Assembly: GCA_963693055.1 (NCBI GenBank)
Contig: OY843751.1
Coordinates: forward strand, 5,376,001-5,440,000
Reading direction: 5' to 3'
DNA from: a bacterium
GTDB taxonomy: Bacteria; Zhuqueibacterota; Zhuqueibacteria; Residuimicrobiales; Krinioviventaceae
DNA: 64,000 nucleotides
In this document: positions 9,591 through 28,223 of the stretch, piece after piece
Position numbering within the stretch: position 1 is the stretch's first letter
How the letters are laid out: every line of letters begins with the position of its first letter
The notes under the pieces: generated by a model
Databases searched by the model: none
What the model saw: only the letters and a program-made list of their open reading frames with translations
What the model was told of the DNA's origin: nothing
Made by a program: the position numbers and the translations under genes

Positions 9591-10391
9591 ATGAGCGCCA
9601 CCTCAATTCTATTTGACGCACATGTACACATTTATCCTGAATATGATATCGATGGAGCTATCAACGCCAGTTTGAACCACATGAACCGCATTATTGGCAA
9701 AAACAAATTAGCCTCCAACACGGTTAAAATGTGGCTACTAACCGAAGGAACCATCTATAACGGTTTCAACCAGCTATTGGCATTGAATTCTGAACAATAT
9801 ATTGCGGAGAAAACAGGGCTGGCCTCTTTAGTCATTCGCGACAGGCAGTCACAAAACAATCTGCTCTATGTTCTGGCAGGTCGACAGATTGTAAGCAGCG
9901 ACAAGCTGGAAATTTGTGCACTGGCAACAAACTTCAACATGGCAGATCGTGAGCTAAACACGCAGGACACCATAAATAAAGTACGGGAAAATGGTGCTAT
10001 CGCGGCCCTTAACTGGGCACCGGGAAAATGGTTTACCAAAAGAGGGAAAATTGTTTCAAATATTATCGAAACAAACGATCCCAATAATTTATTAATCAGT
10101 GAGACAACCATGCGCCCCACTATTTGGCCGACTCCTGTACTTGTCAAGCAGGCGTTTCGTAAAAATTTCAGAATGATTGTAGGTTCTGACCCTCTACCTT
10201 TTAGCGGTGAAGAATCGCTTGTGGGATCTTATATTTCCATGGTCCAGGGAGAATTTGATCCGCAAAATCCAGAGGGATCAATAAAAGCATTACTCATGGA
10301 TCCATCTATTAAAATTAAACGATTGGGAAAAAGAAGCGGGCCCTTTATTTTTGCCAAGAGACAATACAAAATCATGAGTTATAATAAATAA
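9591..10391 (+). CDS. PHP-like/amidohydrolase-fold hypothetical metallohydrolase
   Basis: N-terminal DAHVH and C-terminal GSD motifs; GGAGG RBS. Confidence 0.5.
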   Translation: MSATSILFDAHVHIYPEYDIDGAINASLNHMNRIIGKNKLASNTVKMWLLTEGTIYNGFNQLLALNSEQYIAEKTGLASLVIRDRQSQNNLLYVLAGRQIVSSDKLEICALATNFNMADRELNTQDTINKVRENGAIAALNWAPGKWFTKRGKIVSNIIETNDPNNLLISETTMRPTIWPTPVLVKQAFRKNFRMIVGSDPLPFSGEESLVGSYISMVQGEFDPQNPEGSIKALLMDPSIKIKRLGKRSGPFIFAKRQYKIMSYNK

Positions 10392-10400
10392 CGATCTTGC

Positions 10401-12047
10401 ATGTCTTTATTTAATATCAAAAATATATTGTTAATAGGGTTATTATCCGTCCTGGCAGCCGCTGGTCAGCAAGACTTTGAGTTTCAAATCAATATTGATG
10501 CATTGCGCAATCACGCAGAATATCTAGCCGATGATGAACTGCGCGGAAGGGGTACAGGCACCTATGGAGAAAAGCTGGCAGCAGAATACCTTGCCATGGA
10601 ATTTGAGCGATTAAACCTGTTCCCGCTTGGAGATAACGGAAATTACTTTCAAAACATCCCCATGCACAGCAGTGAGTCGCTTTCCGGATGCCAGGCCCTG
10701 TTATATAACAATACAGACACCTTGAATCTTGAACTGGAAAAAGATTATCTGCTATTCAAGTCCGGAGCTCAAACTCTGGTACCCAAGCCAATCGATCTGG
10801 TTTTTGTGGGTTATGGCATTTTTGCGCCCGAATACGATTATAACGATTATCAATCTGTTGATGTTAGCAACAAGATTGTAGTATACCTGGATGGAGAGCC
10901 GGTATCTACAGACAAATCCTACTTTAACGGAACCGAGCAAACCATCTATGCGTACCCGGAATCCAAAGAGCGCATGGCAATATCGCGAGGTGCACGGGGA
11001 AGTATATTACTGCTTAATCCGCAAAATCCCCGTTTTCGTACCTGGGAGCATTATGTACAAAATTACGCCTTTACCGAGGTCACCCTGGCCTATTCTGTAA
11101 CCGCGCATCTCAGTCTCATTTTGAATCCAAATAGTGCGGCCCACTTGTTTAAAAACGCGCAATACTCGCTGCAAGACATCTATACCATGGACAAAAACAA
11201 TACGCTGAAAAGCTTTGATCTGGCAACATCCCTCTCTTTCAAAGGCCAGTTTAAACAACGGGATTTTATTTCTCCCAATGTCATTGCCATGTTGTCCGGC
11301 AGTGACTCTAAACTCAAGCACGAATATATCATCATAACCGCGCATTACGATCATTTGGGTATAGGCAAACCCATGCTCGCGGATTCCATCTATAACGGAT
11401 TTGGAGACAATGCCCTGGGCTGTGCGGGCGTTCTTGAAATGGCGCGGGTACTATCTGAAAATCGAAAAAAGCTGAAACGTTCTTTCATCTTTCTAATGGT
11501 CACCGGTGAGGAAAAAGGACTACTTGGTTCAACCTATTACATTGATCATCCGGCGGTCCCACTTTACAGAACCATTGCCAACCTGAATGTGGATGGTCTG
11601 GCCATGTTTGATGAATTTAACGATATTGTGGGAGTAGGCCACGAGCTCTCTGATCTGGATGAAACCCTCAAAGAAACGGCAAACCAACTGGGACTTTTAA
11701 CCAGCCCTGTGCCTCAGCAGTTTATGGTATCTGAATCTTTTGCACGTTCCGATCAGATATCTTTTGCCAAAGCCGGTATCCCTTCGATCCTGATTATGGA
11801 TGGCTTGCAATACAAAAGACTGACTCCGGTTCAAGGTCTCCAAATGCATATAAATTGGATTGATCACATATATCATACCCCTTTTGATGATAAAGACCAA
11901 ACCATGAACTATAAAGCGGCTCAGCAACATTGCCGGGTTTTAACACATTTTATTTTTAACACGGCCAATAGAGAATCAGAACCTCAATGGAAACCCGGCA
12001 CACCCTATATCAATGCAAGATTACAAACCATAGCGGAAAAAAGATGA
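10401..12047 (+). CDS. Secreted M28 family peptidase with PA domain
   Basis: Signal peptide; LRGRGTG, FVGYGI...YNDY, AHYDHLG, GDNALG, GEEKGLLGS, RSDQ, YHTPFD. Confidence 0.92.
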   Translation: MSLFNIKNILLIGLLSVLAAAGQQDFEFQINIDALRNHAEYLADDELRGRGTGTYGEKLAAEYLAMEFERLNLFPLGDNGNYFQNIPMHSSESLSGCQALLYNNTDTLNLELEKDYLLFKSGAQTLVPKPIDLVFVGYGIFAPEYDYNDYQSVDVSNKIVVYLDGEPVSTDKSYFNGTEQTIYAYPESKERMAISRGARGSILLLNPQNPRFRTWEHYVQNYAFTEVTLAYSVTAHLSLILNPNSAAHLFKNAQYSLQDIYTMDKNNTLKSFDLATSLSFKGQFKQRDFISPNVIAMLSGSDSKLKHEYIIITAHYDHLGIGKPMLADSIYNGFGDNALGCAGVLEMARVLSENRKKLKRSFIFLMVTGEEKGLLGSTYYIDHPAVPLYRTIANLNVDGLAMFDEFNDIVGVGHELSDLDETLKETANQLGLLTSPVPQQFMVSESFARSDQISFAKAGIPSILIMDGLQYKRLTPVQGLQMHINWIDHIYHTPFDDKDQTMNYKAAQQHCRVLTHFIFNTANRESEPQWKPGTPYINARLQTIAEKR

Positions 12048-12871
12048 GAAAAATTCTGTTTGCGATCACTCTGTTACTCTATACAAGCTGTCATTACACC
12101 AACCAAAATGACAGCAAGATCATTCGGCTCAAAGGCTCAGATACCATGTATGTATTATCTCGTCATTGGGCTGAATCATATATGAAAACGCATCCGCAAA
12201 CATCCGTATATTATGAAGGTGGCGGTACTGGCTCCGGTGCCAGAGCATTGGCAAACGGCAGTGTAGATATTTGTACAGCTTCCAGACCGCTTAGACCTGA
12301 AGAGGCACAGATACTAGTGGACTTTACCGGCTCGCTGGGTGTATCTCATCGGGTTGCCAAAGATGCACTATGTATCTACCTGCATCCCGCCAACCCTGTC
12401 AATTCACTAACGCTTGAACAGGTTGAAAAAATATATCTGGGTGAAATAATAAACTGGGACCAGGTAGGTGGTAACAATGCGGCTATTGAGCTCTATGATC
12501 GTCTGCCCAATTCCGGTACACACCTCTATCTCAGAGAACACGTCCTTGATGGCGAAGCCTTTCATGCAGAGCATATATTATCCGTAGCATCTGCTGCGGA
12601 TATGGTTGCTCAAGTTTCAGAGGACGTTAATGCCATTGGTTATGGAGGTATCATTCAACATCCGGGTATCAAATTCAGCAAGATCAATAATATTGAACCC
12701 ATGCCGGAAAACATACAAAATGACTCTTATCCCATCATCCGGTATCTCTATCTCTATACACCCAACACACCACAAGGGCATGTAAAACGATTTATCGATT
12801 GGGTACTGGGTCCTCAAGGCCAGGCAATAGTGGAACAGACAGGCTTTTTCCCCATCTGGCAAGATTCATAA
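12044..12871 (+). CDS. pstS: Phosphate ABC transporter substrate-binding lipoprotein (PstS family)
   Basis: ATGA overlap at 12044; lipobox YTSC; KGSDTM, GGGTGSG, DICTASR, R.PNSGT, AIGYGG, YPIIRYLYLYT. Confidence 0.9.
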   Translation: MRKILFAITLLLYTSCHYTNQNDSKIIRLKGSDTMYVLSRHWAESYMKTHPQTSVYYEGGGTGSGARALANGSVDICTASRPLRPEEAQILVDFTGSLGVSHRVAKDALCIYLHPANPVNSLTLEQVEKIYLGEIINWDQVGGNNAAIELYDRLPNSGTHLYLREHVLDGEAFHAEHILSVASAADMVAQVSEDVNAIGYGGIIQHPGIKFSKINNIEPMPENIQNDSYPIIRYLYLYTPNTPQGHVKRFIDWVLGPQGQAIVEQTGFFPIWQDS

Positions 12872-13915
12872 AGAAGCGTTTGCACTTTTTTTGGAAAATC
12901 CGCCAAGATAAAAAAGCATAATAAATAATATACTGATACTCACCTGCATATAGAATGTTAAAAAACGCCATCCCAGGGTCATAACTCCCAAAAACTCTTT
13001 GGGGATAAATGCTGCATACATGAAATAAAAAGAAGCCTCTGCTCCCGCCGCCGCTCCCGGAGTGGGAACCAGCGTCATGATTGTAAACGTCATCCATTGA
13101 AATAGAAAAAACAAAACAGGATCAACAGGAACATTCAGAGATACCAGCAACGCGGTAACAACAGAATACCGGCAAGTCCATTGTAAAGCAACAAGTGTCA
13201 TGGATGCAATAAATTGTGTTTTACCGCGCTTACCAATCAGGATATATACAAGTTTAAAATCCTGCCAAACTTTGGAAGATTTTTTTTGAATAACAGTTAA
13301 CAACCGGGACTTTGCAGCCAATTGTTCATTTCTTAATAATACTATCAGCACGATCAATACTACCAGAATGATTGCAATAACAATCAGGTAATTTCTGGCA
13401 AAGCTCAAATGGTGAACTAAATCCCGTATTACCGGTAATTCACAACAAGAAGAAACAATAAAGGCGGTTGGCACCGCAAAGAGAAAAAACAAACCGTCTT
13501 CTACAGTCCCCAATGTCATCAATGAAGCTGCCGCACCTGTAGTCATCCCCTTGCTAATGAGCATACCCGCTTTAACGTATCCTCCGCCAATAGCAGTGGG
13601 ACTAATTGCAGAACCCAGATCCTGACTTAGAATGATCTTGAACAATTCACGAAAAGGGATCTTTTTATCTAAAAATCGTGTCCAGATCATTAATCTCAAT
13701 GTGTTAGTAAACCAGGGAACAAAGGCCAGTGTTATGGCCAACAAAAAATACAAGGGCCTGAACTTGAACAAAACCTCAAAAATACCCCGGTCTGTTGTTA
13801 AAAGGGAAAAAACAATGTTACCGGCCATACCCAAAATGACGACCCCAATACCATATTTGACAAAACGTCTAAAATCCGGTTCGTTTGCATTAATTTTTAT
13901 TGACGGAAATTTCAT
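12866..13915 (-). CDS. Lysylphosphatidylglycerol-synthase TM region / flippase-like membrane protein
   Basis: Multiple TM helices; SPTAIGG, VPTPGAAAGAEASF, WRFLTFY. Confidence 0.85.
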   Translation of the reverse strand: MKFPSIKINANEPDFRRFVKYGIGVVILGMAGNIVFSLLTTDRGIFEVLFKFRPLYFLLAITLAFVPWFTNTLRLMIWTRFLDKKIPFRELFKIILSQDLGSAISPTAIGGGYVKAGMLISKGMTTGAAASLMTLGTVEDGLFFLFAVPTAFIVSSCCELPVIRDLVHHLSFARNYLIVIAIILVVLIVLIVLLRNEQLAAKSRLLTVIQKKSSKVWQDFKLVYILIGKRGKTQFIASMTLVALQWTCRYSVVTALLVSLNVPVDPVLFFLFQWMTFTIMTLVPTPGAAAGAEASFYFMYAAFIPKEFLGVMTLGWRFLTFYMQVSISILFIMLFYLGGFSKKSANASL

Positions 13916-15044
13916 ATAATCTATACATTTTACTGAATGTTTTATACCAGGAGAATTCCTGCTCTACCCATTTTCGCGCGTTTCTACCTTTTTCTCTGAA
14001 TCCATTCGTTGAAAGCTCAAACATTGTATTTGCCATCTCTGTAACTGATCCCGGTTCTACCAACACACCCACTGATGGATTCACACGTTCCTGCAATGCA
14101 CCTGCATTTACACCCAGTACCGGCAGCCCGCTAGCCTGTGCTTCAATAATAGACAGCCCAAAGGTTTCATGCGGTCCGGCGGTTACATATACATCCGCGG
14201 AAGCAAGTATCTCTGCAAGTTCATTTTTATTATGTACATAGGGTATGTAATGAATATCAGGATGTTTGGCCGCGTAATCCATCACCAGAGGTTCAAGAGG
14301 GCCTTGCCCCACTATCATCAAAGCACCATTAAATCGATTAAAACTTTTTTCAAAGGCATTTAAAATCACATCGATTCTTTTTTCAGAATCCAACCGGCCC
14401 GCGTAAATTAATACAATTTTATCTTCCAGGGCAAATCGCTGCCTGATGGTGCCGGTACGACGAGAAGGATGAAAAATATCTGCGTCTACACCCAAAGGGA
14501 TCTTGGCGACTCTTTTGATTCCCATTTTCAATAATTTTCTTTTCAAAAGTTCAGACGCGGTTGCCGTATAATCAAAACAGTTGTATATCTTGTGTGCGTA
14601 CCACTCACTCAAATGTTTTGCGACACTCCCCCAGCCGTTACCGGCAATTTTGGCTACTTCCTGTTCTGAATATGCAGTAGGAAAATCCGTATGATAAAAT
14701 CCAATAATTGAACAGGGGTAATAACGCCTGTACAACATCGCCGGGTACGGCATCAAATATGGACTGCCGATCTCGATAACATCCGGTCGTTCAGCTTTAA
14801 GAATTGAATAAACCTTGTCCAAACGAAATGTATATCGATAAGGTTCACATTTGGGGATGTGAGGCGCTTTTATAGTTATGGTTGTAAATCGAGCTTCCCG
14901 GATAATGCTGTCATTTTCTCCGGGAATAACAAGTAAATGCTCGTCTCTTGTATGGTTTTGAATATATTTGCGTTTTTCATGAATATAGGTTCGAATACCA
15001 CCGCTTTGGGGAGTATAGGCCTGTGTTAAATCACAAATCTTCAT
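13890..15044 (-). CDS. Glycosyltransferase family 4
   Basis: SGGIRTY, FYHTDFP, LGVD..IFHP, YAGRLDSEK, HETFGLSIIEAQASGLPV. Confidence 0.93.
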   Translation of the reverse strand: MKICDLTQAYTPQSGGIRTYIHEKRKYIQNHTRDEHLLVIPGENDSIIREARFTTITIKAPHIPKCEPYRYTFRLDKVYSILKAERPDVIEIGSPYLMPYPAMLYRRYYPCSIIGFYHTDFPTAYSEQEVAKIAGNGWGSVAKHLSEWYAHKIYNCFDYTATASELLKRKLLKMGIKRVAKIPLGVDADIFHPSRRTGTIRQRFALEDKIVLIYAGRLDSEKRIDVILNAFEKSFNRFNGALMIVGQGPLEPLVMDYAAKHPDIHYIPYVHNKNELAEILASADVYVTAGPHETFGLSIIEAQASGLPVLGVNAGALQERVNPSVGVLVEPGSVTEMANTMFELSTNGFREKGRNARKWVEQEFSWYKTFSKMYRLYEISVNKN

Positions 15045-15072
15045 ATACGTTACAAATTCTCCATATCAGGAT

Positions 15073-16941
15073 TTAATAAACCTGTGGGCCGGTAACAGAT
15101 GATTGAATTCCGGATACAGATTTACGGGTGGTTCGGGTAATCTTTTCTGGTTTAACATTTAAAGATATTAACAAATCATACCCTGCCTGTCCACTAACCT
15201 GAATCTCTTGCATTTGATTATAAAACAATCGAATACAATACTGAACAATCTTGTACTTGTTCCGGTCTTTAATGCTGTCCAGCCATTTCATCACCTGACG
15301 GTGTGGAAATCTGGCAGCAACCGGAATATTTAACAACCTTCCAATCAACATTCCGGTTATTGCCATACTTTTAAATGATGAAATATAGATCATTTCATAA
15401 TCTTTGTTTACCAAATCATACAAAACTTTAAGAAACGGTGGCAATTTGATACAGATATTTTTTTCAGGATCTAAGGTTATACTGGTTATCATTTTATAAA
15501 TGATTACGTTATTATCTTTGCAGAACCGATCAGAAATTCCAAGGTACATGGGTTGACGTGATATGGTTTCCTGACCCAACAGACGTAATGGAAGACGATG
15601 ATTACGTGAATGGAGTAAAGCGTTTTCGGTAAATACAGCAATCCTGCCTCTGTAAAACCTGCCGTTTTGGGTAAACGTATTTGCAGCCTGGCGCATGAGA
15701 TGACGGTCCTGATATTCTGTTCGTGCTGCAATAGCATAGGGAAGGATTACGGGCAGCAAAGACAGCAACGGTTTGATAAGCGACAACTTTTCCAGTACGC
15801 CGGCATTGTTCCGGGGAGATGCGATTTTCTTGACAACACCGGCAATACTGGTATGCGTTATCCTGCACATGCTTTTGAAAAACTGTTTATTTTGCACAGC
15901 GTCAAAATGCGCATTTCCTGTTAAAAATCTTTGAAATCTTTTATTATAAATAGCTTCATATTGAAAGGCTTGTTTAGGACCCTCAACTATTTCCGGAACA
16001 AACAATGGCTCTAGTCCGGGGAATTTGGCCAGGCTGAACAGAAATCCGGTTGTTAGATCTGCAATTCTATGCTTTTGGGCTTTTTCAAACATATTGTCAA
16101 GTACAGCATGTGTTACTTTAGAATTGAGATGGGGAATAGAAATATTTTGATGTTTGGCATGTTTATAGGAAACAGCCATAACCTGGTGCGCAACCGACAG
16201 CATACTACCGCCATATCCATGGGCCCTGCATTTACCGGTTCGAATATTATCAAGCAGTTCATATTTATTTTCAGAAAACTGGCATACGGTGTGGGGACAA
16301 GTAATTAAAATACCACCATGATCATCGGAACCTGCAACCATGCTTTTGGTCCAGGGCTCAAGTCCTATGGGATCAATACCGTGCTTTATAGCAAGTCGAT
16401 CAATATCCTCATGGGTTAATCCCTTTAATATCTTTTTCAAGAGTTTATCGGGAACCAGTTGCTTGCCGCCATTCTTGGTTTCAAAAACCTGAAACAAAAG
16501 CAGCATTTTTTCAAAATGCTCCATTGTCAGGGTGCGGCCCATTTTGAAAAACGGGTGCGCAATAAAATGGATAATATTTTGTGAATAAAGATATTGCACC
16601 AGTTCATAAATATTATAACGGAGGTATTGTATTTCCCGATGTATGTTTTCATTAATGTCCAGACAAACCACATGTACCTTGGCATTATCTTCCGGGAAAA
16701 ATGTGGTTACTTCTTCACTCATGAAAAAATCATCATAGTGGGCTATTTCAAGTGCACCATTGATAGTATCATGATCAGTTATGGTTACAAAATCCATCCC
16801 CCGGGATTTTGCAATTTGATATACTTGTTGGGGAGCTGTATAAGATTCGTTTGCTCCCAGCGTCTTTAAAAGCCAGTCACCTGCGTTTTTAGAGAAACAG
16901 GTGTGTACATGTAAATCTATAGATGAATATTCTTGATTCAT
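15073..16941 (-). CDS. PHP-domain phosphoesterase fused to a truncated GT4-like C-terminal region
   Basis: DLHVHT, TITDHD, SEEVT, AHP, GSDDH in the N-terminal half; RIAVFTEN and GT4 N-domain-like C-terminus without an ExFG..E motif; ATG 16941 preferred to TTG 16998. Confidence 0.75.
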   Translation of the reverse strand: MNQEYSSIDLHVHTCFSKNAGDWLLKTLGANESYTAPQQVYQIAKSRGMDFVTITDHDTINGALEIAHYDDFFMSEEVTTFFPEDNAKVHVVCLDINENIHREIQYLRYNIYELVQYLYSQNIIHFIAHPFFKMGRTLTMEHFEKMLLLFQVFETKNGGKQLVPDKLLKKILKGLTHEDIDRLAIKHGIDPIGLEPWTKSMVAGSDDHGGILITCPHTVCQFSENKYELLDNIRTGKCRAHGYGGSMLSVAHQVMAVSYKHAKHQNISIPHLNSKVTHAVLDNMFEKAQKHRIADLTTGFLFSLAKFPGLEPLFVPEIVEGPKQAFQYEAIYNKRFQRFLTGNAHFDAVQNKQFFKSMCRITHTSIAGVVKKIASPRNNAGVLEKLSLIKPLLSLLPVILPYAIAARTEYQDRHLMRQAANTFTQNGRFYRGRIAVFTENALLHSRNHRLPLRLLGQETISRQPMYLGISDRFCKDNNVIIYKMITSITLDPEKNICIKLPPFLKVLYDLVNKDYEMIYISSFKSMAITGMLIGRLLNIPVAARFPHRQVMKWLDSIKDRNKYKIVQYCIRLFYNQMQEIQVSGQAGYDLLISLNVKPEKITRTTRKSVSGIQSSVTGPQVY

Positions 16942-16948
16942 AAAACGA

Positions 16949-18103
16949 CTAACTGGCTTTGCTGTAAATAAAGGGTTTCTTAATCTGCTGTCCTTCAATC
17001 ACAGATTTATAGCTATCTATCAGTCTCGAATTGATAGCAGACCAACTGTATTTTTTAGCGGTCTCTCTTCCCTGCCTGCCCAATGTTTTGAGCAATGTAG
17101 AATCAGCAAGAAATTTTTCTATATGCACGGCAAAATCAACAGGATCATTTGGCTTTGCGAGGAATCCGTCATACCCGTGGTTTATCACATCACCTACGCC
17201 ACCCTTGGCAACACCCACCGCCGGTATACCTGAAGCAAAAGACTCTAAAATTACATTTCCAAAAGTTTCTGTAGTAGAAGGAAAAACAAACAGATCGGCA
17301 GAAGCATACCATTCGTAAAGCGGTTTACCTTTTAAATAACCGGTATAGTGCGCGTCCGGCATTTTTTCTTCCAATTCCTGGCGCATGGGACCGTCACCAA
17401 CAATTACGATCTGATAATCATATCTTTCTTTGAGCATATTATGAGCAACAACCAGATCATCCAGGTCTTTATGATTGATCAATCGGCCAACAAACAATAA
17501 AATCGGCTTATCATCCGCACCTATTGACTGACGCAGTTGGGTACTGCGAAGACGTGGAGAAAATTTATCCAACTCAATTCCACGCTGCCAGAGTTCAGCA
17601 TTGGGAATGCCATGTTTTTCCAGTTCTGCAATTGCTGAAGGAGTAGGCGTATAATTTTTAAGGCATTTGCTGTGGAACCACTTTAAAAAAGCCCAGCCAT
17701 AACTTTCCAGTCCACCAATACCAAAATAGGGAAAATAATGCACCCAATGAGTATGGTAACTGGATACTACAGGGATATTGTTTCGTTTCGCGTAATGCAG
17801 CGCCCACAAACCCATCAAACTGGGTGCTGCAATATGGACCAGATCGGGATTTAGAAAATCCAGATCATATTCAAGATTATCGAAATAGGGCACACCAATT
17901 TTGTACTCTTTGTATAATGCAAGGGGCACAGAACTGACTTTTCTTACACGATCAGCCCAATCATAACCGGATTCCGGTTTAACCGGTGAAAAAAACTTGA
18001 AATTAACGTCCTGTTCAAGTAAAGAATCCGCCAGAAAAGACATGGTCTTTTGCACGCCGTCTGTATTTGGCGGCAAACTCTCTGTAAAAATTGCAAGATT
18101 CAT
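16949..18103 (-). CDS. Glycosyltransferase family 4 (glycolipid-synthase/MgtA-like)
   Basis: IFTESLPPNTDGV, SSYHTH, WQRGIE..FSP, FVGRL, FPSTTETFGNVILESFASGIP. Confidence 0.93.
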   Translation of the reverse strand: MNLAIFTESLPPNTDGVQKTMSFLADSLLEQDVNFKFFSPVKPESGYDWADRVRKVSSVPLALYKEYKIGVPYFDNLEYDLDFLNPDLVHIAAPSLMGLWALHYAKRNNIPVVSSYHTHWVHYFPYFGIGGLESYGWAFLKWFHSKCLKNYTPTPSAIAELEKHGIPNAELWQRGIELDKFSPRLRSTQLRQSIGADDKPILLFVGRLINHKDLDDLVVAHNMLKERYDYQIVIVGDGPMRQELEEKMPDAHYTGYLKGKPLYEWYASADLFVFPSTTETFGNVILESFASGIPAVGVAKGGVGDVINHGYDGFLAKPNDPVDFAVHIEKFLADSTLLKTLGRQGRETAKKYSWSAINSRLIDSYKSVIEGQQIKKPFIYSKAS

Positions 18104-18112
18104 AACATCACC

Positions 18113-18646
18113 CTAAATTATTAATAGTCCAAATTGCGCACAAAATACGCCTAAAATCAAGCCTGCAAGAACATCAGAAGGGAAATGCAGGCCATTATAG
18201 ATCCGTGAAAATCCAATAACAGAAGCAATCAGAAATACCGGAATAGTAAATACCGGATAAAAATGACTAATTAAAACAGCCATTAAAAACGCGGCGGCCG
18301 TATGGCCAGAGGGAAAACTAAATTTATCGGGAGGTTTTACAAGAAATTTGATTTGTAAAAGCTTGTCGAAAGGTCTTTTACGCTTGAATTTATTTTTCAA
18401 CATCACCTGTATTGTTACTTCAAGGATAAATGACAAAACACCAGCCAGTAAAAACCGGGGCGCAATAGATAGATCTAAAACAAACAGAAACAATGCAATT
18501 ACCGCATAAATATAGCCATCTCCAATGCGTGAGCTCCAATACATAATGGTGTCCATTATTTTTCTACCGGAAAGCCTGAATATCCGGATAGAGACGGCAC
18601 TGTCCCAGGCTGCAACATTATTCATTATAATTCTGACCATCAGCAT
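18113..18646 (-). CDS. PAP2 family membrane phosphatase
   Basis: K..FKRKRP, SFPSGH, SRIYNGLHFPSDV. Confidence 0.93.
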   Translation of the reverse strand: MLMVRIIMNNVAAWDSAVSIRIFRLSGRKIMDTIMYWSSRIGDGYIYAVIALFLFVLDLSIAPRFLLAGVLSFILEVTIQVMLKNKFKRKRPFDKLLQIKFLVKPPDKFSFPSGHTAAAFLMAVLISHFYPVFTIPVFLIASVIGFSRIYNGLHFPSDVLAGLILGVFCAQFGLLII

Positions 18647-18704
18647 TACCTGATATTATACATTCGTTTTACATTAAATTGTACAAATGTAAAATTATTC
18701 AGAC

Positions 18705-18731
18705 ATAAAGGATATGTTAAGAAATGGTAAA
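18705..18731 (-). promoter_or_regulatory. Putative Pho box upstream of the PAP2-GT operon
   Basis: Minus strand TTTACCATTTC-TTAACATATCC-TTTAT (11-bp period); 23/27 identical to 24904-24930. Confidence 0.75.
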
Positions 18732-18883: not shown

Positions 18884-21847
18884 TTATTTTACAAGAATCA
18901 TCTTTTTAACCTGCACATTGTTGCTACCAGCTTCCATACGGTAAAAGTAAACACCGCTGGTAAGGTGAGAAGCATCCCAGGTGATTGTATAGTTACCGGC
19001 AGTTTTTACACCGTTAACCAAAGTTGCAACCTGTTGACCCAGTTGGTTGAATACAGTAATATTAACATTTGCAGTCTGTTTTACCGTATATTCAATATTT
19101 GTACTGGGGTTGAACGGATTGGGATAATTCTGTGACAGTGTGTAATCAACCGGACGAGCAACCTGGTATGATTCATGGATTGAAGTTTCAATGATTTCAG
19201 CCAAACCATCATAAGCAACACCACCGGCTTCGGGACGAGGATCAAGACCATTGTCCTGCATACGGCTGATACTTGTCAAAGGTGAGCTTGATAAAAATTC
19301 ATTTGCATTTGCAGCATCACTCAACATTGCAGCAACTTCATCGCTGCCGCTTAATTCAGCCCAGCCTGAACCACCGGCAAAATCAAACCACAAGTTATTC
19401 TGGAATACAATTTCGCCAGCATCCAAACGATTTTTGCTGTCTTGTTTGGTTTCATCTTCAAGATCTTCAACAGTCATTGCAATACCGGCACAGTCACCAA
19501 TGATAGAGTTTTTATAAGCCCCACCCCAGTTGTCACGCAGGTTAAAAGCTGCATCTGTTTGAGAAGATTCCATTCCGGGACCAATCAAAGTTGCGTTGTA
19601 AATTTCCGGGAACGCAAACGGAGTACCATCTTCTGGTTTATGTCCTCCATCATGTTCGCCAAGGTGGCCTGCTGAAGCAGAATCCTGAATTGCGAACAGA
19701 AACTGCATTTTGGTACGTAAGCCCTGATCGTGATCAAAAGCATCATCACCACAGAAAGCAGAAATCAAATGAGAGTTGTTCACTGTTCCGCCAAACCATT
19801 CATAACCGTCGTCTTTGTTTGCAAACACTTCAATATGGTCGATTGTTGTACCGTCACCAACAGAGCCCAGGGTCAACCCATTGATCTCATCACCAGGGGC
19901 CAACTCGGTACCACCATGACGGATCGAGATATATCTCAAAAGACCAGAGCTGTCATGATCATCATCACCACCAACCAGGGTACGTTCGGATTGTTCGGAA
20001 ATACCTTCAATGTAAAAAGCTTCGCCTTCATTCGTAGTTGCATTACCAATCAGAATCAAACCACCCCATTCACCGCGAGTATTAAAATCCAGATCATAAG
20101 GATCGGTAACATCATCGTTGATAGAAGTAAAGATGATCGGGTTAACACCAGTACCTTCGGCAAATAACTGTGCGCCATTACAGATTACCAGCGCACTGGT
20201 ATTCTCACCAGATTCTGATTTCGCTTTAATAACAGTACCTGCTTCAATATTCAATTCAGCACCAGATTCAACATATACCAGTCCATCCAACACATAAATA
20301 TTATCAGCAGTCCAGAAAACTTTATCTCCTGCGATAATATCGTCATCTACAATAGTAACTTCAGTTGCAGGTACTTTATCGGCAGCAAAGAAACCATATT
20401 CATCTAAAGCAGTCCAACCTTTTGCCCAGTTGGTCTGACCAAAAGCGCCTTTGTAATTCACTTGTTCAAAGAAACCATCATTCGGAATTTCTGCAAGTTC
20501 TTGATAAGCAACTCCACCGGCAGCAGGACGAGGATCAAGGCCATTGTCCTGTAAGCGGCTTATGCTTGTTAATGGAGAAGCATTCAATAATTCATTTGCG
20601 TTACCAGCGTCACCCAGCATTGCTGCTACAGCACTACTACCGCTCAGATCTGCCCAGGTCGTGCCACCTGCCAAATCAAACCACAGGTTGTTCTGGAAAA
20701 CAATTTCGCCGGCATCCAAACGGTTTTTACTATCTTGTTTGGTTTCATCTTCAAGATCTTCAACAGTCATCGCGATTCCCGCACAATCGCCAATGATAGA
20801 ATTTTTATAAACGCCACCCCAATTGTCGCGTAAATTAAATGCAGCATCCGTTTGAGAGGACTCCATTCCCGGTCCAATCAAAGTTGCATTAAATACCTGG
20901 GGATACGCATAAGGAGTCCCATCCTCTGGTTTATGTCCGCCATCATGTTCGCCAAGGTGACCTGCAGATGCGGAGTCTTGAATTGCGAACAGAAACTGCA
21001 TTTTAGTGCGTAAGCCCTGATCGTGATCAAAAGCATCATCACCACAATATGCAGCAATCAAATGAGAACAGTTAACAGTACCACCGAACCACTCAAAACC
21101 ATCATCTTTATTCGCAAAAACTTCAACATACTCGATGGTGGTTCCGCGACCTACTGAACCCAGGGTCAAACCATTGATCTCATCACCAGGGGCCAGTTCA
21201 GTACCACCATGACGAATAGAAACGTAACGCAAAACACCAGAGTTATCATCATCATCATCACCGCCAACCAGGGTGCGTTCAGACTGTTCAGAGATACCTT
21301 CAATATAGAAATTCTCGCCTTCGTTTGTAGTAGCGTTACCAATGATAATCAATCCACCCCATTCTCCACGGGTGTTGAAATCCAGATCATAAGGATCAGT
21401 AACATCATCGTTGATAGAAGTAAAAATGATAGGTTTTACAGCAGTACCTTCAGCAAATATCTGCGCGCCATTACAGATAACCAAAGCACTGGTATTCTCA
21501 CCGGATTCACTTTTAGCTTTAATAATAGTACCAGCTTCAATATTCAATACACCACCGGCTTCAAGATATACAAGACCATCCAATATATAAATATTATCAG
21601 CAGTCCAGTAATAAATTTCACCACCAGCCAGGTCAGCATCAGTAATGGTTACTTGATTTACGGGTTCTTTATCAGCCGCAAAAAAACCATATTCATCCAT
21701 TGCGGTCCAACCTTTCATCCAGTTGGAAGAACCAAAGGCTCCCTTATAGTTTACCTGATCATAAAATTCTACGGTATCGGCAAACAAAACACCGCAAAGA
21801 GCAACAGTAACAATTAGCGTTAAAAGGGCAAACAATTTTGCTCTCAT
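18884..21847 (-). CDS. Secreted protein with two tandem ~431-aa acidic beta-helix-like domains and a T9SS/FlgD-type C-terminal sorting domain
   Basis: Signal peptide; two copies of SG.LRY.SIRHGG...EINGLTLGSVG.GTTI...DDG.EWFGGTVN; C-terminal LSQNYPNPFNPST...GVYFYRM...KKMILVK. Confidence 0.85.
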   Translation of the reverse strand: MRAKLFALLTLIVTVALCGVLFADTVEFYDQVNYKGAFGSSNWMKGWTAMDEYGFFAADKEPVNQVTITDADLAGGEIYYWTADNIYILDGLVYLEAGGVLNIEAGTIIKAKSESGENTSALVICNGAQIFAEGTAVKPIIFTSINDDVTDPYDLDFNTRGEWGGLIIIGNATTNEGENFYIEGISEQSERTLVGGDDDDDNSGVLRYVSIRHGGTELAPGDEINGLTLGSVGRGTTIEYVEVFANKDDGFEWFGGTVNCSHLIAAYCGDDAFDHDQGLRTKMQFLFAIQDSASAGHLGEHDGGHKPEDGTPYAYPQVFNATLIGPGMESSQTDAAFNLRDNWGGVYKNSIIGDCAGIAMTVEDLEDETKQDSKNRLDAGEIVFQNNLWFDLAGGTTWADLSGSSAVAAMLGDAGNANELLNASPLTSISRLQDNGLDPRPAAGGVAYQELAEIPNDGFFEQVNYKGAFGQTNWAKGWTALDEYGFFAADKVPATEVTIVDDDIIAGDKVFWTADNIYVLDGLVYVESGAELNIEAGTVIKAKSESGENTSALVICNGAQLFAEGTGVNPIIFTSINDDVTDPYDLDFNTRGEWGGLILIGNATTNEGEAFYIEGISEQSERTLVGGDDDHDSSGLLRYISIRHGGTELAPGDEINGLTLGSVGDGTTIDHIEVFANKDDGYEWFGGTVNNSHLISAFCGDDAFDHDQGLRTKMQFLFAIQDSASAGHLGEHDGGHKPEDGTPFAFPEIYNATLIGPGMESSQTDAAFNLRDNWGGAYKNSIIGDCAGIAMTVEDLEDETKQDSKNRLDAGEIVFQNNLWFDFAGGSGWAELSGSDEVAAMLSDAANANEFLSSSPLTSISRMQDNGLDPRPEAGGVAYDGLAEIIETSIHESYQVARPVDYTLSQNYPNPFNPSTNIEYTVKQTANVNITVFNQLGQQVATLVNGVKTAGNYTITWDASHLTSGVYFYRMEAGSNNVQVKKMILVK
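19181..21766 (-). repeat. Intragenic tandem duplication, unit 1293 bp (431 codons)
   Basis: FYDQVNYKGAFG starts at 21766 and FFEQVNYKGAFG at 20473; long identical peptide runs with many synonymous differences. Confidence 0.95.
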
Positions 21848-21930
21848 TAGAACAACTCCTTTTTTAATTGTGTAATTTTATTTAGCTTTATATACAATGA
21901 ATTAAAGCCTGTATCATTCATCTCTTGGTA

Positions 21931-24831
21931 TTATAAATTGTATTTAAATCCCATAGAGAAAGTTCTGCCGGTCTGAAACCTCTGATAGATGTATTCAGTA
22001 TCTTTAAACTCGTAGGTTCGTTTTTCATAGGTATCCAAAATATTGTTCACCGCGAGTTTAACCGACATGTGGTTTATCAGTTTCTTTGTTATTGAAAAAT
22101 TCAAAATGGTTGCGGGTTGTTCATAAATATCGGGTGTGGGGTATTCACCAATTGACGATAACCGTTGACCGAAAATATTTAAGTACAAGCTGGCATTTAA
22201 TCCTCTATCATAATTATCATACGCCAGACTCAGATTTAACAAATAAGGTGACTGACCCTGAAAGGGACGCGTATAGTTGACAACCGCGCTGGTATCACTC
22301 TGCTGCTGATATTCGTCTAAAAGGTCTTTATTGGTATATTGTATTTCTGATTCAATCAATGACAAGTTGCCGCTAAAGGTAAAATTGTTCAACGCATGGT
22401 GAAGCACATCCAGTTTCTTGCGCATTTCAAATTCAACACCATAGGTTGTAGCTTCTGCAACATTTCTCCAACTGAACCAACTGTTTCCACCTTTTAACAG
22501 GACCTGAACAATTGGGTCCGTAAAATCTTTATAGAACGCGCTTATGGCATAAATCTCACCCGGGCGGCTGAACCATTCCCAACGAAGATCAAAATTATCT
22601 ATCAGGGTACGTTTTAAATTTGAATATCCTCTAAACTTGTCACCTTCTTTAAAGTCATAAGATGCAAATCCTGATATTTCACGGAAAGAAGGTCTTGCAA
22701 GGGTGCGTCCATAAGCAACCCTGGCATTCATATTTTCACTCAAACTGTAAACAAAATTAACAGATGGCAGCAGATCATGAGTTTCAATAGCGCCACTGTA
22801 TTGCGGATCCGGGTCCAGACTGTTTACAAACATGTCTGTTGACTCGTAACGCGCGCCACCAATAAAACGTAATTTCCGGGTTACCGGCACATCTACCATG
22901 GCATATGTTGCATCAACAACCTGTTCTGCATCATAATTACTGGATTGCTGTGCAGTTTCTTCAAGAATAATACCCATTGTGTTATAAGTTCTTATTTCAC
23001 CATTGGGTAAAGTTCTGGTTTCCTGACCAATCAGACCCAATACATCAGAGGTCAATGTTGAATTCAGGTCATCCTGATTAATTCTAAACCGGTCTTGAAG
23101 ATCGCTATTGGGATCATAAACAAAACGTCTTTCAAGAAAATCACGCTGACGGGTAGAATAACTATAACCAAACTTTAAAGAACCGGTGCGCATAAAGGCA
23201 AAATTCATAGGTACTGTAAAATCTAATTTGTAATCATTCCGGTCTTCTTCAAGATTTCTATAATAACGTTCCTGGGCGGTGTTGGAGCGAATACCAATCA
23301 AACCATTTGCGTTTTGATAAAAATTCAAATAACGGGTATCAGGTTCATCCTGGGTTGTACGAGAGGTTGCTATTTTCCAATCCGCTTTAATGCCCCAAAA
23401 CGCATCAAGCTGATGGCTTCCATCTATATGCACAGATCTCAAACTGCGTTCATTATATTGTTGAGCAGTAGCAATATAAGTGTCATCTTTTGCATAATCA
23501 TACGGGAAAATGCCCGAGAAAATCCTTGAAGTTGCCACGGCGTTCTGATTATACAATCCGGTTACACTGATCAAATCACGGGATGTTGGTTTGTATGACG
23601 TTTTCAAAGTTGCGCCCCAAAGTACATCGTCAGTGGTTTTATGATCATTCAAGTCATACCACATATCCAAACCCGATGCTTTGGAAGGATCAAGAACATC
23701 CAATCCCCAGCGATTATACTCACCATCATCATAATTCTTATAAGAACGGCTATATGTCAAACTACCCAAGTAACCAAATGGCTTGCCGAACAATTCAAAC
23801 TGATTACCCGCAGAGAATGAATAACTTTGGGCCATTGGTAATGTTGCCGTATTTGGCATCATATTGTGATTAAAGGATTTTACAATAACATCCTGAAATT
23901 GGGCCAACTCTGAATTGGTTCTGGGATTCCCTTCAAAAGTCAACAAATCATTACCAACAATACCCGGTAGTGAAAGAGAACCATTATCAAAACCCAACCA
24001 ACGCAAATTCCCGGCATCTGTTACACGTAAAGCATTATCATTAAATGTTGCCTGGGTATTATATGATGTGCTGGCTGAAAAATTCAAGGTAAGCTGTTCG
24101 GGAAAATCTTTGGTTTTAATATCAACAGTACCACCGGAAAAATCACCCGCTTTATCCGGAGTAAAGCTTTTTACCGTAACAATATTATCAATCAAGCCCG
24201 AAGGAATAAGATCAATAGAACCGGAACGTGCATAGGGATCTGAACTGGGAAGCTCGGCTCCATTCAACTGAGTACTGGTATATCTATCTCCTAAACCACG
24301 CACAAATACTTTTTTACCACCTACAACAGAAGCACCGGTAACACCCTTCATGGCTTCGGCTGCGTCTCCTGCTCCGGCCTGGGTAATTGCCTCGGCACTG
24401 ATTGCGTCGCTTACGGATGTTGCCTTTTGACGATCTTTGAGCAGCACTGCTTCAGTATTCTTGACTGCCTTTGCGGTAACAACCACTTCCTGCCCTTCAA
24501 GCACTTCCATACCCATGGCAAAATCAAGCTTTTCAACCTGACCTTCATTAACCTCAACACCTTCAATTCTAAAATTTGAATAACCGATATAAGTTGAAAC
24601 CAAAGAATACGTACCGGCAGGCAATCCTTTGATTCGATAAACCCCTTCAAGGTCTGTCGCAGAACCTCTGCGAGTTCCCTCAATGACAACATTCACACCC
24701 GGTAATGGAGTACCTGTTTCCTTGTCTACCACTTTACCTGTAATGGTTCCATTGCCCTGAGAAAATACCACACTGGTATAGCTCAACATAAAAAGCAGCA
24801 AAGCGGATAAAATTAGACGTTTTCTTAACAT
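21931..24831 (-). CDS. TonB-dependent receptor with N-terminal carboxypeptidase-regulatory-like domain
   Basis: ITGKVVD..TG.PLPGVNV, plug VRGLGDRY, KSFTPD, SGG.VDI; barrel GARYE, LLPSVN, QGQSPY; terminal FKYNL. Confidence 0.93.
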   Translation of the reverse strand: MLRKRLILSALLLFMLSYTSVVFSQGNGTITGKVVDKETGTPLPGVNVVIEGTRRGSATDLEGVYRIKGLPAGTYSLVSTYIGYSNFRIEGVEVNEGQVEKLDFAMGMEVLEGQEVVVTAKAVKNTEAVLLKDRQKATSVSDAISAEAITQAGAGDAAEAMKGVTGASVVGGKKVFVRGLGDRYTSTQLNGAELPSSDPYARSGSIDLIPSGLIDNIVTVKSFTPDKAGDFSGGTVDIKTKDFPEQLTLNFSASTSYNTQATFNDNALRVTDAGNLRWLGFDNGSLSLPGIVGNDLLTFEGNPRTNSELAQFQDVIVKSFNHNMMPNTATLPMAQSYSFSAGNQFELFGKPFGYLGSLTYSRSYKNYDDGEYNRWGLDVLDPSKASGLDMWYDLNDHKTTDDVLWGATLKTSYKPTSRDLISVTGLYNQNAVATSRIFSGIFPYDYAKDDTYIATAQQYNERSLRSVHIDGSHQLDAFWGIKADWKIATSRTTQDEPDTRYLNFYQNANGLIGIRSNTAQERYYRNLEEDRNDYKLDFTVPMNFAFMRTGSLKFGYSYSTRQRDFLERRFVYDPNSDLQDRFRINQDDLNSTLTSDVLGLIGQETRTLPNGEIRTYNTMGIILEETAQQSSNYDAEQVVDATYAMVDVPVTRKLRFIGGARYESTDMFVNSLDPDPQYSGAIETHDLLPSVNFVYSLSENMNARVAYGRTLARPSFREISGFASYDFKEGDKFRGYSNLKRTLIDNFDLRWEWFSRPGEIYAISAFYKDFTDPIVQVLLKGGNSWFSWRNVAEATTYGVEFEMRKKLDVLHHALNNFTFSGNLSLIESEIQYTNKDLLDEYQQQSDTSAVVNYTRPFQGQSPYLLNLSLAYDNYDRGLNASLYLNIFGQRLSSIGEYPTPDIYEQPATILNFSITKKLINHMSVKLAVNNILDTYEKRTYEFKDTEYIYQRFQTGRTFSMGFKYNL

Positions 24832-24903
24832 TTAAATACCTCAATGATTCAAGTTTCTGCCAATTTATTACAGACAAATATACTTTTAGCACGTTAGCAA
24901 GCG

Positions 24904-24930
24904 ATAAAGTCAATGTTAAGAAATTGTAAA
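24904..24930 (-). promoter_or_regulatory. Putative Pho box upstream of the TonB receptor operon
   Basis: Minus strand TTTACAATTTC-TTAACATTGAC-TTTAT; near-identical to 18705-18731. Confidence 0.75.
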
Positions 24931-27404: not shown

Positions 27405-27448
27405 AATGTTAAGTTAATGTTAAGATAATGTAAAGGAAATTTTAAGAC
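27405..27448. promoter_or_regulatory. Four 11-bp direct repeats (putative Pho box array) between the divergent pit and phoB genes
   Basis: AATGTTAAGTT AATGTTAAGAT AATGTAAAGGA AATTTTAAGAC. Confidence 0.8.
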
Positions 27449-27523: not shown

Positions 27524-28210
27524 ATGTCTAAAAAAATATTAATAGTAGATGATGAAAAAGATATCCTTGACTTGTTGGAATTCAATTTACAAAACGAAGG
27601 CTATAATACTGTAACAGCCAGCGATGGTGAACAAGCTCTTTTAACCGCAAAAGCAGAAAATCCGGATTTGATTATTTTAGACATTATGCTACCGGGTAAG
27701 GATGGTTGGGAAGTCTTGAAAGAATTGAGAAAAGATCCCCAAACTCTAGATATTCCTGTTATCTTTTTAACCGCCAAAGATAGTGAAATTGACGAAGTTC
27801 TTGGGCTTGAATTGGGAGCCGACGACTATATTGTAAAACCCATAAGTATTCGAAAATTACTTGCGCGTATCAAAAAAGTATTAAAACGTTCAAAAACCAA
27901 ACAACCGGAAAATGATGATCGTATTATTGTTGATGAACTAGTTATCGACCCGCAAAGTTATAAAGTGACATCAGCAGACCAGGATATTGTTCTAACAAAA
28001 AAAGAATTTGATATACTCTATTATATGGCAAAACGTCCCGGACGGGTTATTACCCGCAAGATCCTTCTCGATGAAATCTGGGATGAAAATGTAGTGGTTA
28101 TTGATCGGACTATTGATGTACATATCCGCAAAATCAGAGAAAAACTGGGCACTGAAAACATGGGCCTGATTGAGACCATCAAAGGCGTTGGCTATCGCTT
28201 CAAAGTCTGA
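27524..28210 (+). CDS. phoB: OmpR/PhoB family response regulator (PhoB/PhoP)
   Basis: ILIVDDE, LDIMLP, FLTAK, GADDYIVKP, RTIDVHIRKIREKLG, IETIKGVGY; phosphate-gene context. Confidence 0.85.
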   Translation: MSKKILIVDDEKDILDLLEFNLQNEGYNTVTASDGEQALLTAKAENPDLIILDIMLPGKDGWEVLKELRKDPQTLDIPVIFLTAKDSEIDEVLGLELGADDYIVKPISIRKLLARIKKVLKRSKTKQPENDDRIIVDELVIDPQSYKVTSADQDIVLTKKEFDILYYMAKRPGRVITRKILLDEIWDENVVVIDRTIDVHIRKIREKLGTENMGLIETIKGVGYRFKV

Positions 28211-28223
28211 ATTTTAATTATAT

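Follow-up and report, generated by a model that had tools for sequence, protein, structure and literature searches.

Lipid renovation by PlcP and Agt has been described in Sinorhizobium meliloti, Phaeobacter, SAR11 and Pseudomonas aeruginosa (PA3219, PA3218 and PA0842), and plcP is the marker gene in use for phosphorus-saving lipid remodelling in bacteria. Published work reports that Agt1 and Agt2 make monoglucosyldiacylglycerol (MGDG) and glucuronosyldiacylglycerol (GADG) from diacylglycerol (DAG; PMC8528852), and that DAG comes from a phospholipase C or from dephosphorylation of phosphatidic acid (PA), the latter being a recognised alternative to PlcP (PMC4796936). Here we describe a five-gene operon within a 64,000-nucleotide stretch of DNA (the window; positions 5,376,001 to 5,440,000 of contig OY843751.1) from a bacterium of an uncultured lineage in the Zhuqueibacterota. 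The operon shares with the PlcP-Agt systems a Pho-type box, an Agt-clade family 4 glycosyltransferase (GT4), a frequent ornithine-lipid synthase neighbour and MGDG or GADG as predicted products, but it has no PlcP; a PAP2 phosphatase and a PHP phosphoesterase occupy the slot that supplies DAG, and a second GT4 and a flippase are added. Because PlcP is absent the operon is not a member of the PlcP-Agt pathway, though it may work like one, and we predict that it is a new form of Agt-based lipid remodelling that does not depend on PlcP. Its apparently new features are the five-gene assembly, a GpgS/GpgF-like module without GpgD, an optional PHP gene, a separate origin of the first GT4 and a hint as to the topology of PAP2.

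Other described systems resemble parts of the operon. In Desulfovibrio (Oleidesulfovibrio) alaskensis G20 the protein Dde_3613 (named Agt) is genetically required for all of the glycolipids formed under phosphate starvation, both MGDG and GADG (PMC5193443); the terms PHP, PlcP and phospholipase do not occur in the main text of that paper. In the gpgSDF system of P. aeruginosa (PMC12713373), GpgS makes N-acetylglucosaminyl-phosphatidylglycerol (GlcNAc-PG), which GpgD then deacetylates, and the flippase role of GpgF is unverified; gpgS alone yields GlcNAc-PG in Escherichia coli. HexSDF of Clostridioides difficile attaches an amino sugar to a glycolipid (PMC10128005). Among PAP2 phosphatases, LpxE dephosphorylates lipid A, undecaprenyl diphosphate (C55-PP) and phosphatidylglycerol phosphate (PGP) at the periplasmic face (PMC6581854), and actinobacterial enzymes are reported to make DAG in vivo (PMC8225852).

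The operon and its conserved core

The host genome is a single 6.5-Mb contig, 100% complete, and homologues, where the sources name them, belong to candidate division KSB1. Open reading frames (ORFs) and family scans (PF01569, PF00534/PF13439 and PF03706, all over cut-off) place five genes on the minus strand at 12866..18646, in the order PAP2, GT4-A, PHP, GT4-B and MprF-type flippase, and uphold the tightly packed, partly overlapping operon of the preliminary description. PAP2 and GT4-A are 9 nt apart, GT4-A and PHP 7 nt apart (or overlapping by 50 nt), and PHP and GT4-B 28 nt apart; GT4-B and the flippase gene overlap by 26 nt. The choice at the second junction depends on the PHP start: TTG at 16998 gives 641 aa, and ATG at 16941, 7 nt past the GT4-A stop, gives 622 aa, the length of the homologue P0001.

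GT4-A (16949..18103, minus strand; 384 aa) exceeds the PF00534 and PF13439 cut-offs, has intact DGV, YHT and ETFG motifs, and is 32% identical to P. aeruginosa Agt2 and 38% identical to a Bacillus glycosyltransferase (GT) encoded beside a PAP2. It was placed in two quick trees supported by the Shimodaira-Hasegawa-like approximate likelihood ratio test (SH-aLRT) only, the second containing 25 of the 59 rows of the first plus the GT domain of Dde_3613. In both it groups with Agt1, Agt2, a Rhizobium Agt-type protein, the Bacillus GT and the GT domains of PHP-GT4 fusions (SH-aLRT 98 and 90), and its sister in the second tree is the Bacillus GT, which likewise follows a PAP2 (SH-aLRT 95). An Agt-type GT4 had been proposed beforehand, and this placement, with the intact motifs, bears it out; we predict GT4-A to be a UDP-glucose/UDP-glucuronic acid:DAG transferase. 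Two other origins were rejected: a tandem duplication giving GT4-A and GT4-B (joint clade, approximately unbiased test, p-AU 2e-8), and a fission model in which GT4-A is the split-off half of a PHP-GT4 fusion, GT4-A lying outside the fused-GT clade. The sister PAP2-GT4 pair, from Bacillus mycoides (L004:3458-5143), has a box-like array of its own (score 11.4).

Across 133 genomes of the phylum, PHP occurs in 20 and GT4-A in 27. The 29 phylum loci examined (19 found through PHP and 10 through GT4-A only, several of them ending at contig edges) contain PAP2 and GT4-A together in 22 cases and all five genes in 11, and in five the other four genes stand without PHP. PAP2 and GT4-A are thus the core of the operon and PHP is optional. 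The ornithine-lipid synthase OlsF (NF052615, 696 bits; cut-off 620) adjoins the operon in 5 of the 29. A second, even sample was drawn from the phylum of a Geobacteraceae genome (251 genomes, PHP in 36); here 16 of 35 PHP loci, with neighbours taken within about 6 kb, lie near OlsF (9), PhoA (7), PhoH (3), PhoB (2) or PstS (1). The plcP-agt1 loci and one PHP locus (L170) have c15, PIN-PhoH and OlsF as common neighbours. The suggested link to phosphorus-free lipids thus gains from the OlsF neighbours and from the requirement for Dde_3613, the full-length relative of PHP, in making MGDG and GADG.

PlcP was sought with the P. aeruginosa protein (locus L086, adjoining agt1). The only match in the window genome is an LpxH-like gene at 25-27% identity, and there is none at E<=1e-25 in the 133 phylum genomes, most of which are incomplete metagenome-assembled genomes; the same query finds true PlcP in other genomes at E 1e-48 to 1e-89. 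That the locus lacks a PlcP-type gene, as first noted, therefore holds for the genome and for the phylum sample. The operon points to two substitutes, PAP2 and PHP. If this is true, surveys based on plcP miss part of the remodelling that takes place in lineages of anoxic settings and sediments, and these lineages become candidate sources of environmental phosphorus-free glycolipids.

The explanation that we favour, with moderate confidence, is that the operon specifies a phosphate-starvation-induced, PlcP-independent, Agt-type glycolipid pathway, whose catalytic steps we infer throughout. Phosphate starvation would activate the operon through a neighbouring PhoB-like protein, PAP2 would dephosphorylate PA to DAG, and GT4-A would transfer glucose or glucuronic acid onto the DAG, giving MGDG and/or GADG. 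Where present, PHP would be an optional second supplier of DAG or inorganic phosphate (Pi), drawing on phospholipids or PA. The PAP2-Agt pair would be related to the Bacillus pair, and PHP would descend from a one-chain PHP-Agt fusion of the Dde_3613 family, its GT half having decayed after a separate PAP2-Agt pair had come to lie next to it. A GpgS/GpgF-like add-on module, made up of GT4-B and the flippase, would put a further sugar, a hexose or N-acetylhexosamine, onto an anionic lipid (GADG or phosphatidylglycerol, PG) and then flip the product.

PHP, PAP2 and the proposed supply of diacylglycerol

By fold and motifs, the PHP gene (15073..16941, or to 16998 from TTG; minus strand) encodes a PHP phosphoesterase, a helical linker and a decayed N-terminal GT4 half. 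The protein has no Pfam match at 0.001 (PF02811 appears only at E 0.047), and a sequence search of the PDB returned nothing. The front of its structural model (mean predicted local distance difference test, pLDDT, 83) resembles RNase AM, TM0559 and PsfC, and the rear corresponds to half of MshA/BshA, that is, to half a GT-B fold. The metal motifs DxHxH, TDH, E, H, AHP, ExxNG and SDDH are present (family profile score 383 bits), and the complete GT4 domain, with NGV, YHT, DTFG and the donor-binding lobe, is not kept. What had been called a PHP/GT gene is therefore sound in its PHP part, with the fold and the metal site, but not in its GT part, which has lost its catalytic motifs and is non-working.

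PHP relatives number 905 among the scored candidates (726 clusters at 1e-30 with the PHP profile) and fall into two length classes. The shorter proteins, of about 580-650 aa, are labelled KSB1 wherever they carry a name, and the longer ones, of about 800 aa, include an entire GT4. Of 19 phylum copies besides that of the window, 17 are truncated and two full-length; DxHxH, TDH and SDDH are found in all 19, and YHT or DTFG in none of the 17. Truncation with a separate GT next door also occurs in other lineages (L037, L048, L171, L172 and L174), and because such GT-less forms recur, the PHP domain appears to be under selection on its own. The loci thus offer a natural dissection: in some the PHP domain persists although its glycosyltransferase is gone, and in sister operons PAP2 stands without PHP.

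The window PHP is 28% identical to the D. alaskensis fusion over 623 aa (E 4e-77), sharing the PHP domain and helical linker, and no PlcP was found in the genomes sampled around either protein: 0/133 as above, and 0/161 in the family of a genome (G452) encoding the fusion, which itself occurs in 81 of the 161. Unlike Dde_3613, the window protein has neither the GT4 donor-binding domain nor the catalytic motifs, and the GT function is left to an Agt that is encoded separately and has another origin. G452 encodes a protein 100% identical to the fusion (P0243), and the ORF upstream is GT2-like by motif, as Dde_3612 is annotated; the identity of P0243 with Dde_3613 is therefore a strong inference, made by this context and not by locus tag. 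The window PHP is thus most simply read as a truncated member of the Dde_3613 family, with a dead GT half and a conserved metal site. Aimed searches, whose coverage left out most subscription papers, surfaced none on the role of the PHP domain in this family or on the PAP2-Agt pair.

The PAP2/LPT membrane lipid phosphatase (18113..18646, minus strand; PF01569, 82.6 bits) has the intact tripartite motif KX6RP, PSGH and SRX5HX3D found in LpxE, YodM, PgpB and the actinobacterial phosphatidate phosphatases, and at 177 aa it is of LpxE-like size. Its closest PDB structure is Aquifex LpxE (6EBU, E 3e-19), and its best NCBIfam is undecaprenyl-diphosphatase (74 bits, below the cut-off of 250). It differs from these enzymes in being consistently paired with an Agt-clade GT4, and from LpxE in a charge pattern that suggests the opposite orientation in the membrane. 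Positive charge marks the cytoplasmic side of membrane proteins (the positive-inside rule). When non-catalytic lysines and arginines are counted on each side, with the topology of LpxE mapped onto PAP2, the window protein has 13 on the active-site side and one on the far side, and 17 phylum orthologues have medians of 10 (over 79 residues) and 2 (over about 31 residues). PAP2s beside Agt-clade GTs elsewhere give 9:0 (Bacillus) and 11:2 (Ralstonia). A PAP2 paralogue in the window genome gives 4:5, with a basic short loop as in LpxE, and three others, poorly aligned, give 4:2, 10:3 and 6:2. The excess on the active-site side suggests that the site faces the cytoplasm, where PA and UDP-sugars are, as would fit a phosphatidate phosphatase. 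One PAP2 gene of D. alaskensis G20 shows similar fitness defects whatever the phosphate level.

The likeness to LpxE also allows a different division of labour, in which the true counterpart of PlcP would be PHP, freeing DAG from PG or phosphatidylethanolamine as a phospholipase C or phosphodiesterase, and PAP2 would do no more than recover phosphate from lipid A, C55-PP or PGP on the periplasmic side. PHP is indeed fused to an Agt-type GT in proteins of about 800 aa from many phyla, its metal motifs outlast the GT in the 17 phylum forms and in other lineages, and L037 combines PHP and Agt with a DgkA-like neighbour (by eye, without family-scan confirmation). Yet five operons keep the other four genes in genomes with no match to PHP or PlcP, and another DAG source is therefore needed there; moreover, the charge bias of PAP2 is the reverse of the basic short loop of LpxE and of one paralogue. 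We accordingly think this division of labour unlikely. The original proposal that PAP2 and PHP both release Pi and DAG needs revision as well, since PHP is dispensable in those five operons and the closest solved relative of PAP2 is LpxE.

Several other PHP-related loci were noted. An ORF at 9591-10391 of the window was considered as a second relative of the operon PHP and was rejected (probability 0.25% against the PHP profile). Elsewhere in the genome (G000:C1:5273804-5275065; L189:1805-3066), a PHP of 219 aa that stands alone and shares the motif type (hhalign 98%) overlaps a gene that is CDP-alcohol phosphatidyltransferase-like by motif; it lies behind a strong copy of the Pho-type box (ranks 6 and 5 of 5047 with the two matrices described below) and may be another Pho-type PHP with a link to lipid metabolism. 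A radical SAM protein of 430 aa, for which NCBIfam has no name (L038:12391-13692 and similar), is present in 12 of the 80 PHP-GT4 loci, most often immediately following the fusion, and in 6 of the 35 PHP loci of the second sample; it is a possible lipid-modifying partner. A Methyltransf_24 gene (L146:6923-8370 and similar), often with a phosphatidylserine-decarboxylase-like gene, adjoins PHP-GT4 in about ten Desulfobacterota-type loci. Finally, a cassette of a distinct small PHP, an HpnI-like GT and a DedA-like gene (L021:4506-7364) mirrors one of PlcP, ceramide glucosyltransferase and VTT (L087:2471-4974), a hint of PHP in the place of PlcP.

The GT4-B and flippase module

GT4-B (13890..15044, minus strand; 384 aa; PF00534/PF13439 over cut-off) falls in a clade of GpgS-type proteins (SH-aLRT 99%), one member of which passes NF053787 (GpgS) at 598 bits. 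NF053787 is also the best NCBIfam of GT4-B itself, at 283 bits, under the equivalog cut-off of 480. The last gene (12866..13915, minus strand; 349 aa) encodes an MprF/GpgF/HexF-type flippase-like membrane protein without the aminoacyl-transferase domain, over cut-off for PF03706 (92 bits) and TIGR00374 (73 bits) but not for GpgF (NF053789, 66 bits; cut-off 320). The combination of a glycosyltransferase with a membrane protein that has only the MprF flippase part is common to gpgSDF, hexSDF and the window operon. The last differs in having no deacetylase (GpgD/HexD), in scoring under the GpgS and GpgF cut-offs and in standing behind a Pho-type box, and HexS is annotated as of the MGDG-synthase type, unlike GT4-B; we regard the operon as a non-member relative of gpgSDF. 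Its module is separable from the core: three loci (L117, L118 and L132) lack it, and another (L121) has it but neither PAP2 nor GT4-A.

The acceptor of GT4-B may be PG or a glycolipid. Because GT4-B groups with GpgS, which adds GlcNAc to PG, its product may still carry phosphorus, and the statement that the two GT4s add a first and a second sugar can no longer be made as it stood; a second sugar is one of two live readings. The other, which is compatible with the favoured pathway and denies only the second sugar, is that the module glycosylates PG, masking charge on a phosphorus-containing lipid, and is co-regulated with but chemically apart from the glycolipid core. The clade of GT4-B, its NF053787-passing member, the activity of gpgS alone in E. 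coli and the separability of the module all speak for it. Consumption of PG under phosphate starvation would be a poor fit, however, GT4-B is far under the GpgS cut-off, GpgD is missing, and HexSDF puts its amino sugar on a glycolipid. In addition, Agt-clade GT4s have GpgS- or GpgD-like neighbours at L001 (Ralstonia), L177 and L067, and in many Verrucomicrobia loci PHP-GT4 is preceded by a GpgD-like gene. On balance PG glycosylation is a substantial possibility, if somewhat short of an even chance. A more ambitious proposal joins the second sugar to the results for PHP and PAP2: the PHP domain would define a novel lipid phosphoesterase class, taking the place of PlcP in sulfate reducers and in many uncultured phyla, PAP2 would be an inside-facing phosphatidate phosphatase dedicated to glycolipids, and GT4-B the source of an undescribed phosphorus-free diglycosyl-DAG exported by the flippase. 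It would amount to two independent PlcP substitutes and a new lipid, and we consider it rather doubtful.

The GpgD-like genes were seen in several arrangements: before PHP-GT4 in many Verrucomicrobia loci (L083:9198-10007, in a cluster of 19 loci), flanking PHP-GT4 together with a GT4-B-like gene (L177:5166-9334), and facing an Agt+PAP2 pair together with a GpgS-like gene (L001:4001-7730, Ralstonia). These suggest amino-sugar glycolipids built on the Agt product. A literature search on PA4311 and phosphate found only the gpg paper (PMC12713373).

Pho-type boxes and neighbouring phosphate genes

A Pho-type operator lies 85 nt upstream of the PAP2 start (18693..18731, minus strand) and consists of four hexamers, TTTACC, TTAACA, TTTATG and ATAATT, with an 11-bp period. 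Operators of the same type occur at 24892..24930 (minus strand), upstream of a TonB receptor (21931-24831) and a following secreted C-terminal-sorting-domain protein (18884-21847), and at 27407..27445 (minus strand), between a PiT-PhoU transporter (25013-27235) and divergent PhoB/PhoR-like genes (27524-29696). Five further genomes likewise have TTAACA-like hexamers at this period ahead of PAP2, and a matrix trained on them ranked the TonB gene first, the PiT gene second and the operon fifth of 5047 genes scored in the window genome. Because its training arrays had been chosen with a TTAACA seed partly seen in the window, a second matrix was built from the TonB and PiT arrays of this genome only; with it the operon ranks 3/5047, first among untrained genes. 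The Pho-like box of the preliminary description thus exceeds chance, as an array starting at 18731. With the second matrix, 18 of 22 PAP2 upstream regions in relatives score above the 95th percentile of 170 other genes, and one of the four below that threshold belongs to a second, non-leading PAP2. The box presumably resembles the PhoP boxes of Bacillus and the SphR boxes of cyanobacteria. The literature searched yielded no Pho-box consensus for Bacteroidota, and a scan for sigma-70 promoters and terminators upstream of the operon gave nothing exceeding chance. The operon is probably under phosphate-starvation control through this box, and from the PiT-PhoU context the regulator acting on it would be the neighbouring PhoB-like protein.

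Several observations weigh against the proposed pathway or its regulation. First, the divergent OmpR-family regulator (27524-28210) passes no PhoB cut-off; its best family is TIGR02154 PhoB (245 bits, cut-off 296), with NF053854 at 240 against 270, and the best family of its partner, PnpS/PhoR, is also below cut-off. Second, in the Geobacteraceae-centred sample the box matrix is high at only 7 of 35 PHP genes, and there is no high score at the gene identical to Dde_3613. Third, no OlsF was found in the window genome, and no GpgD deacetylase in the 29 phylum loci, the DUF2334 matches of the genome lying elsewhere and in other protein types. Fourth, PlcP and PHP-GT4 occur together in 6 of 50 genomes (a check spanning 50 of the 74 PHP-GT4 loci outside the phylum), which speaks against strict replacement, and the overlap of 0 in 251 genomes (36 with PHP, 5 with PlcP, about 0.7 expected) is a test without power. 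Finally, the nearest structure and NCBIfam of PAP2 are LpxE and undecaprenyl-diphosphatase, its orientation is inferred from a charge count only, and the tested relative of GT4-B works on PG.

On a further reading the acceptors are not DAG at all but an undecaprenyl carrier, lipopolysaccharide or, with a step of phosphatase action, a soluble glycoside; alternatively, the repeat is the site of another OmpR-family regulator. The GT4 and PAP2 families are promiscuous, the structural neighbours of PHP act on nucleotides, RNA and small phosphoesters, and the regulator is under the PhoB cut-offs. GT4-A is, however, placed specifically among DAG glycosyltransferases, Dde_3613 supplies genetic evidence (PMC5193443), OlsF and PhoA are among the neighbours, and PiT-PhoU has one of the top-ranked boxes; we judge such readings highly improbable and retain the Agt-type glycolipid pathway as the favoured explanation.

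The surroundings of the operon were first described as a phosphate island, and this is true of the upstream side, with its PiT-PhoU transporter (PF01384 with a weak PhoU tail, co-oriented with the operon), PhoB/PhoR-like genes and boxed TonB gene. It does not extend to the other side, where a PstS-like gene converges on the operon end; that gene and those upstream of it have box scores of 2.2-3.2. They form an unboxed operon (9591-12871) of a 266-aa unclassified HxH protein with no Pfam match, an M28 peptidase and the orphan PstS-like gene, and the genome has no PstB at the TIGR00972 cut-off. Uptake of Pi may therefore depend on PiT-PhoU. The TonB receptor and the secreted protein, which has 987 aa and two repeats (together 18884-24831), have the same orientation as the operon and the strongest box of the genome; L123 and related loci again have the two next to PHP. 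A further boxed TonB-type gene (G000:C1:579588-582611; rank 3 with the five-genome matrix) heads a cluster next to genes recognised by eye as an MFS transporter and a HAD-like hydrolase, and may serve the uptake of organic phosphate.

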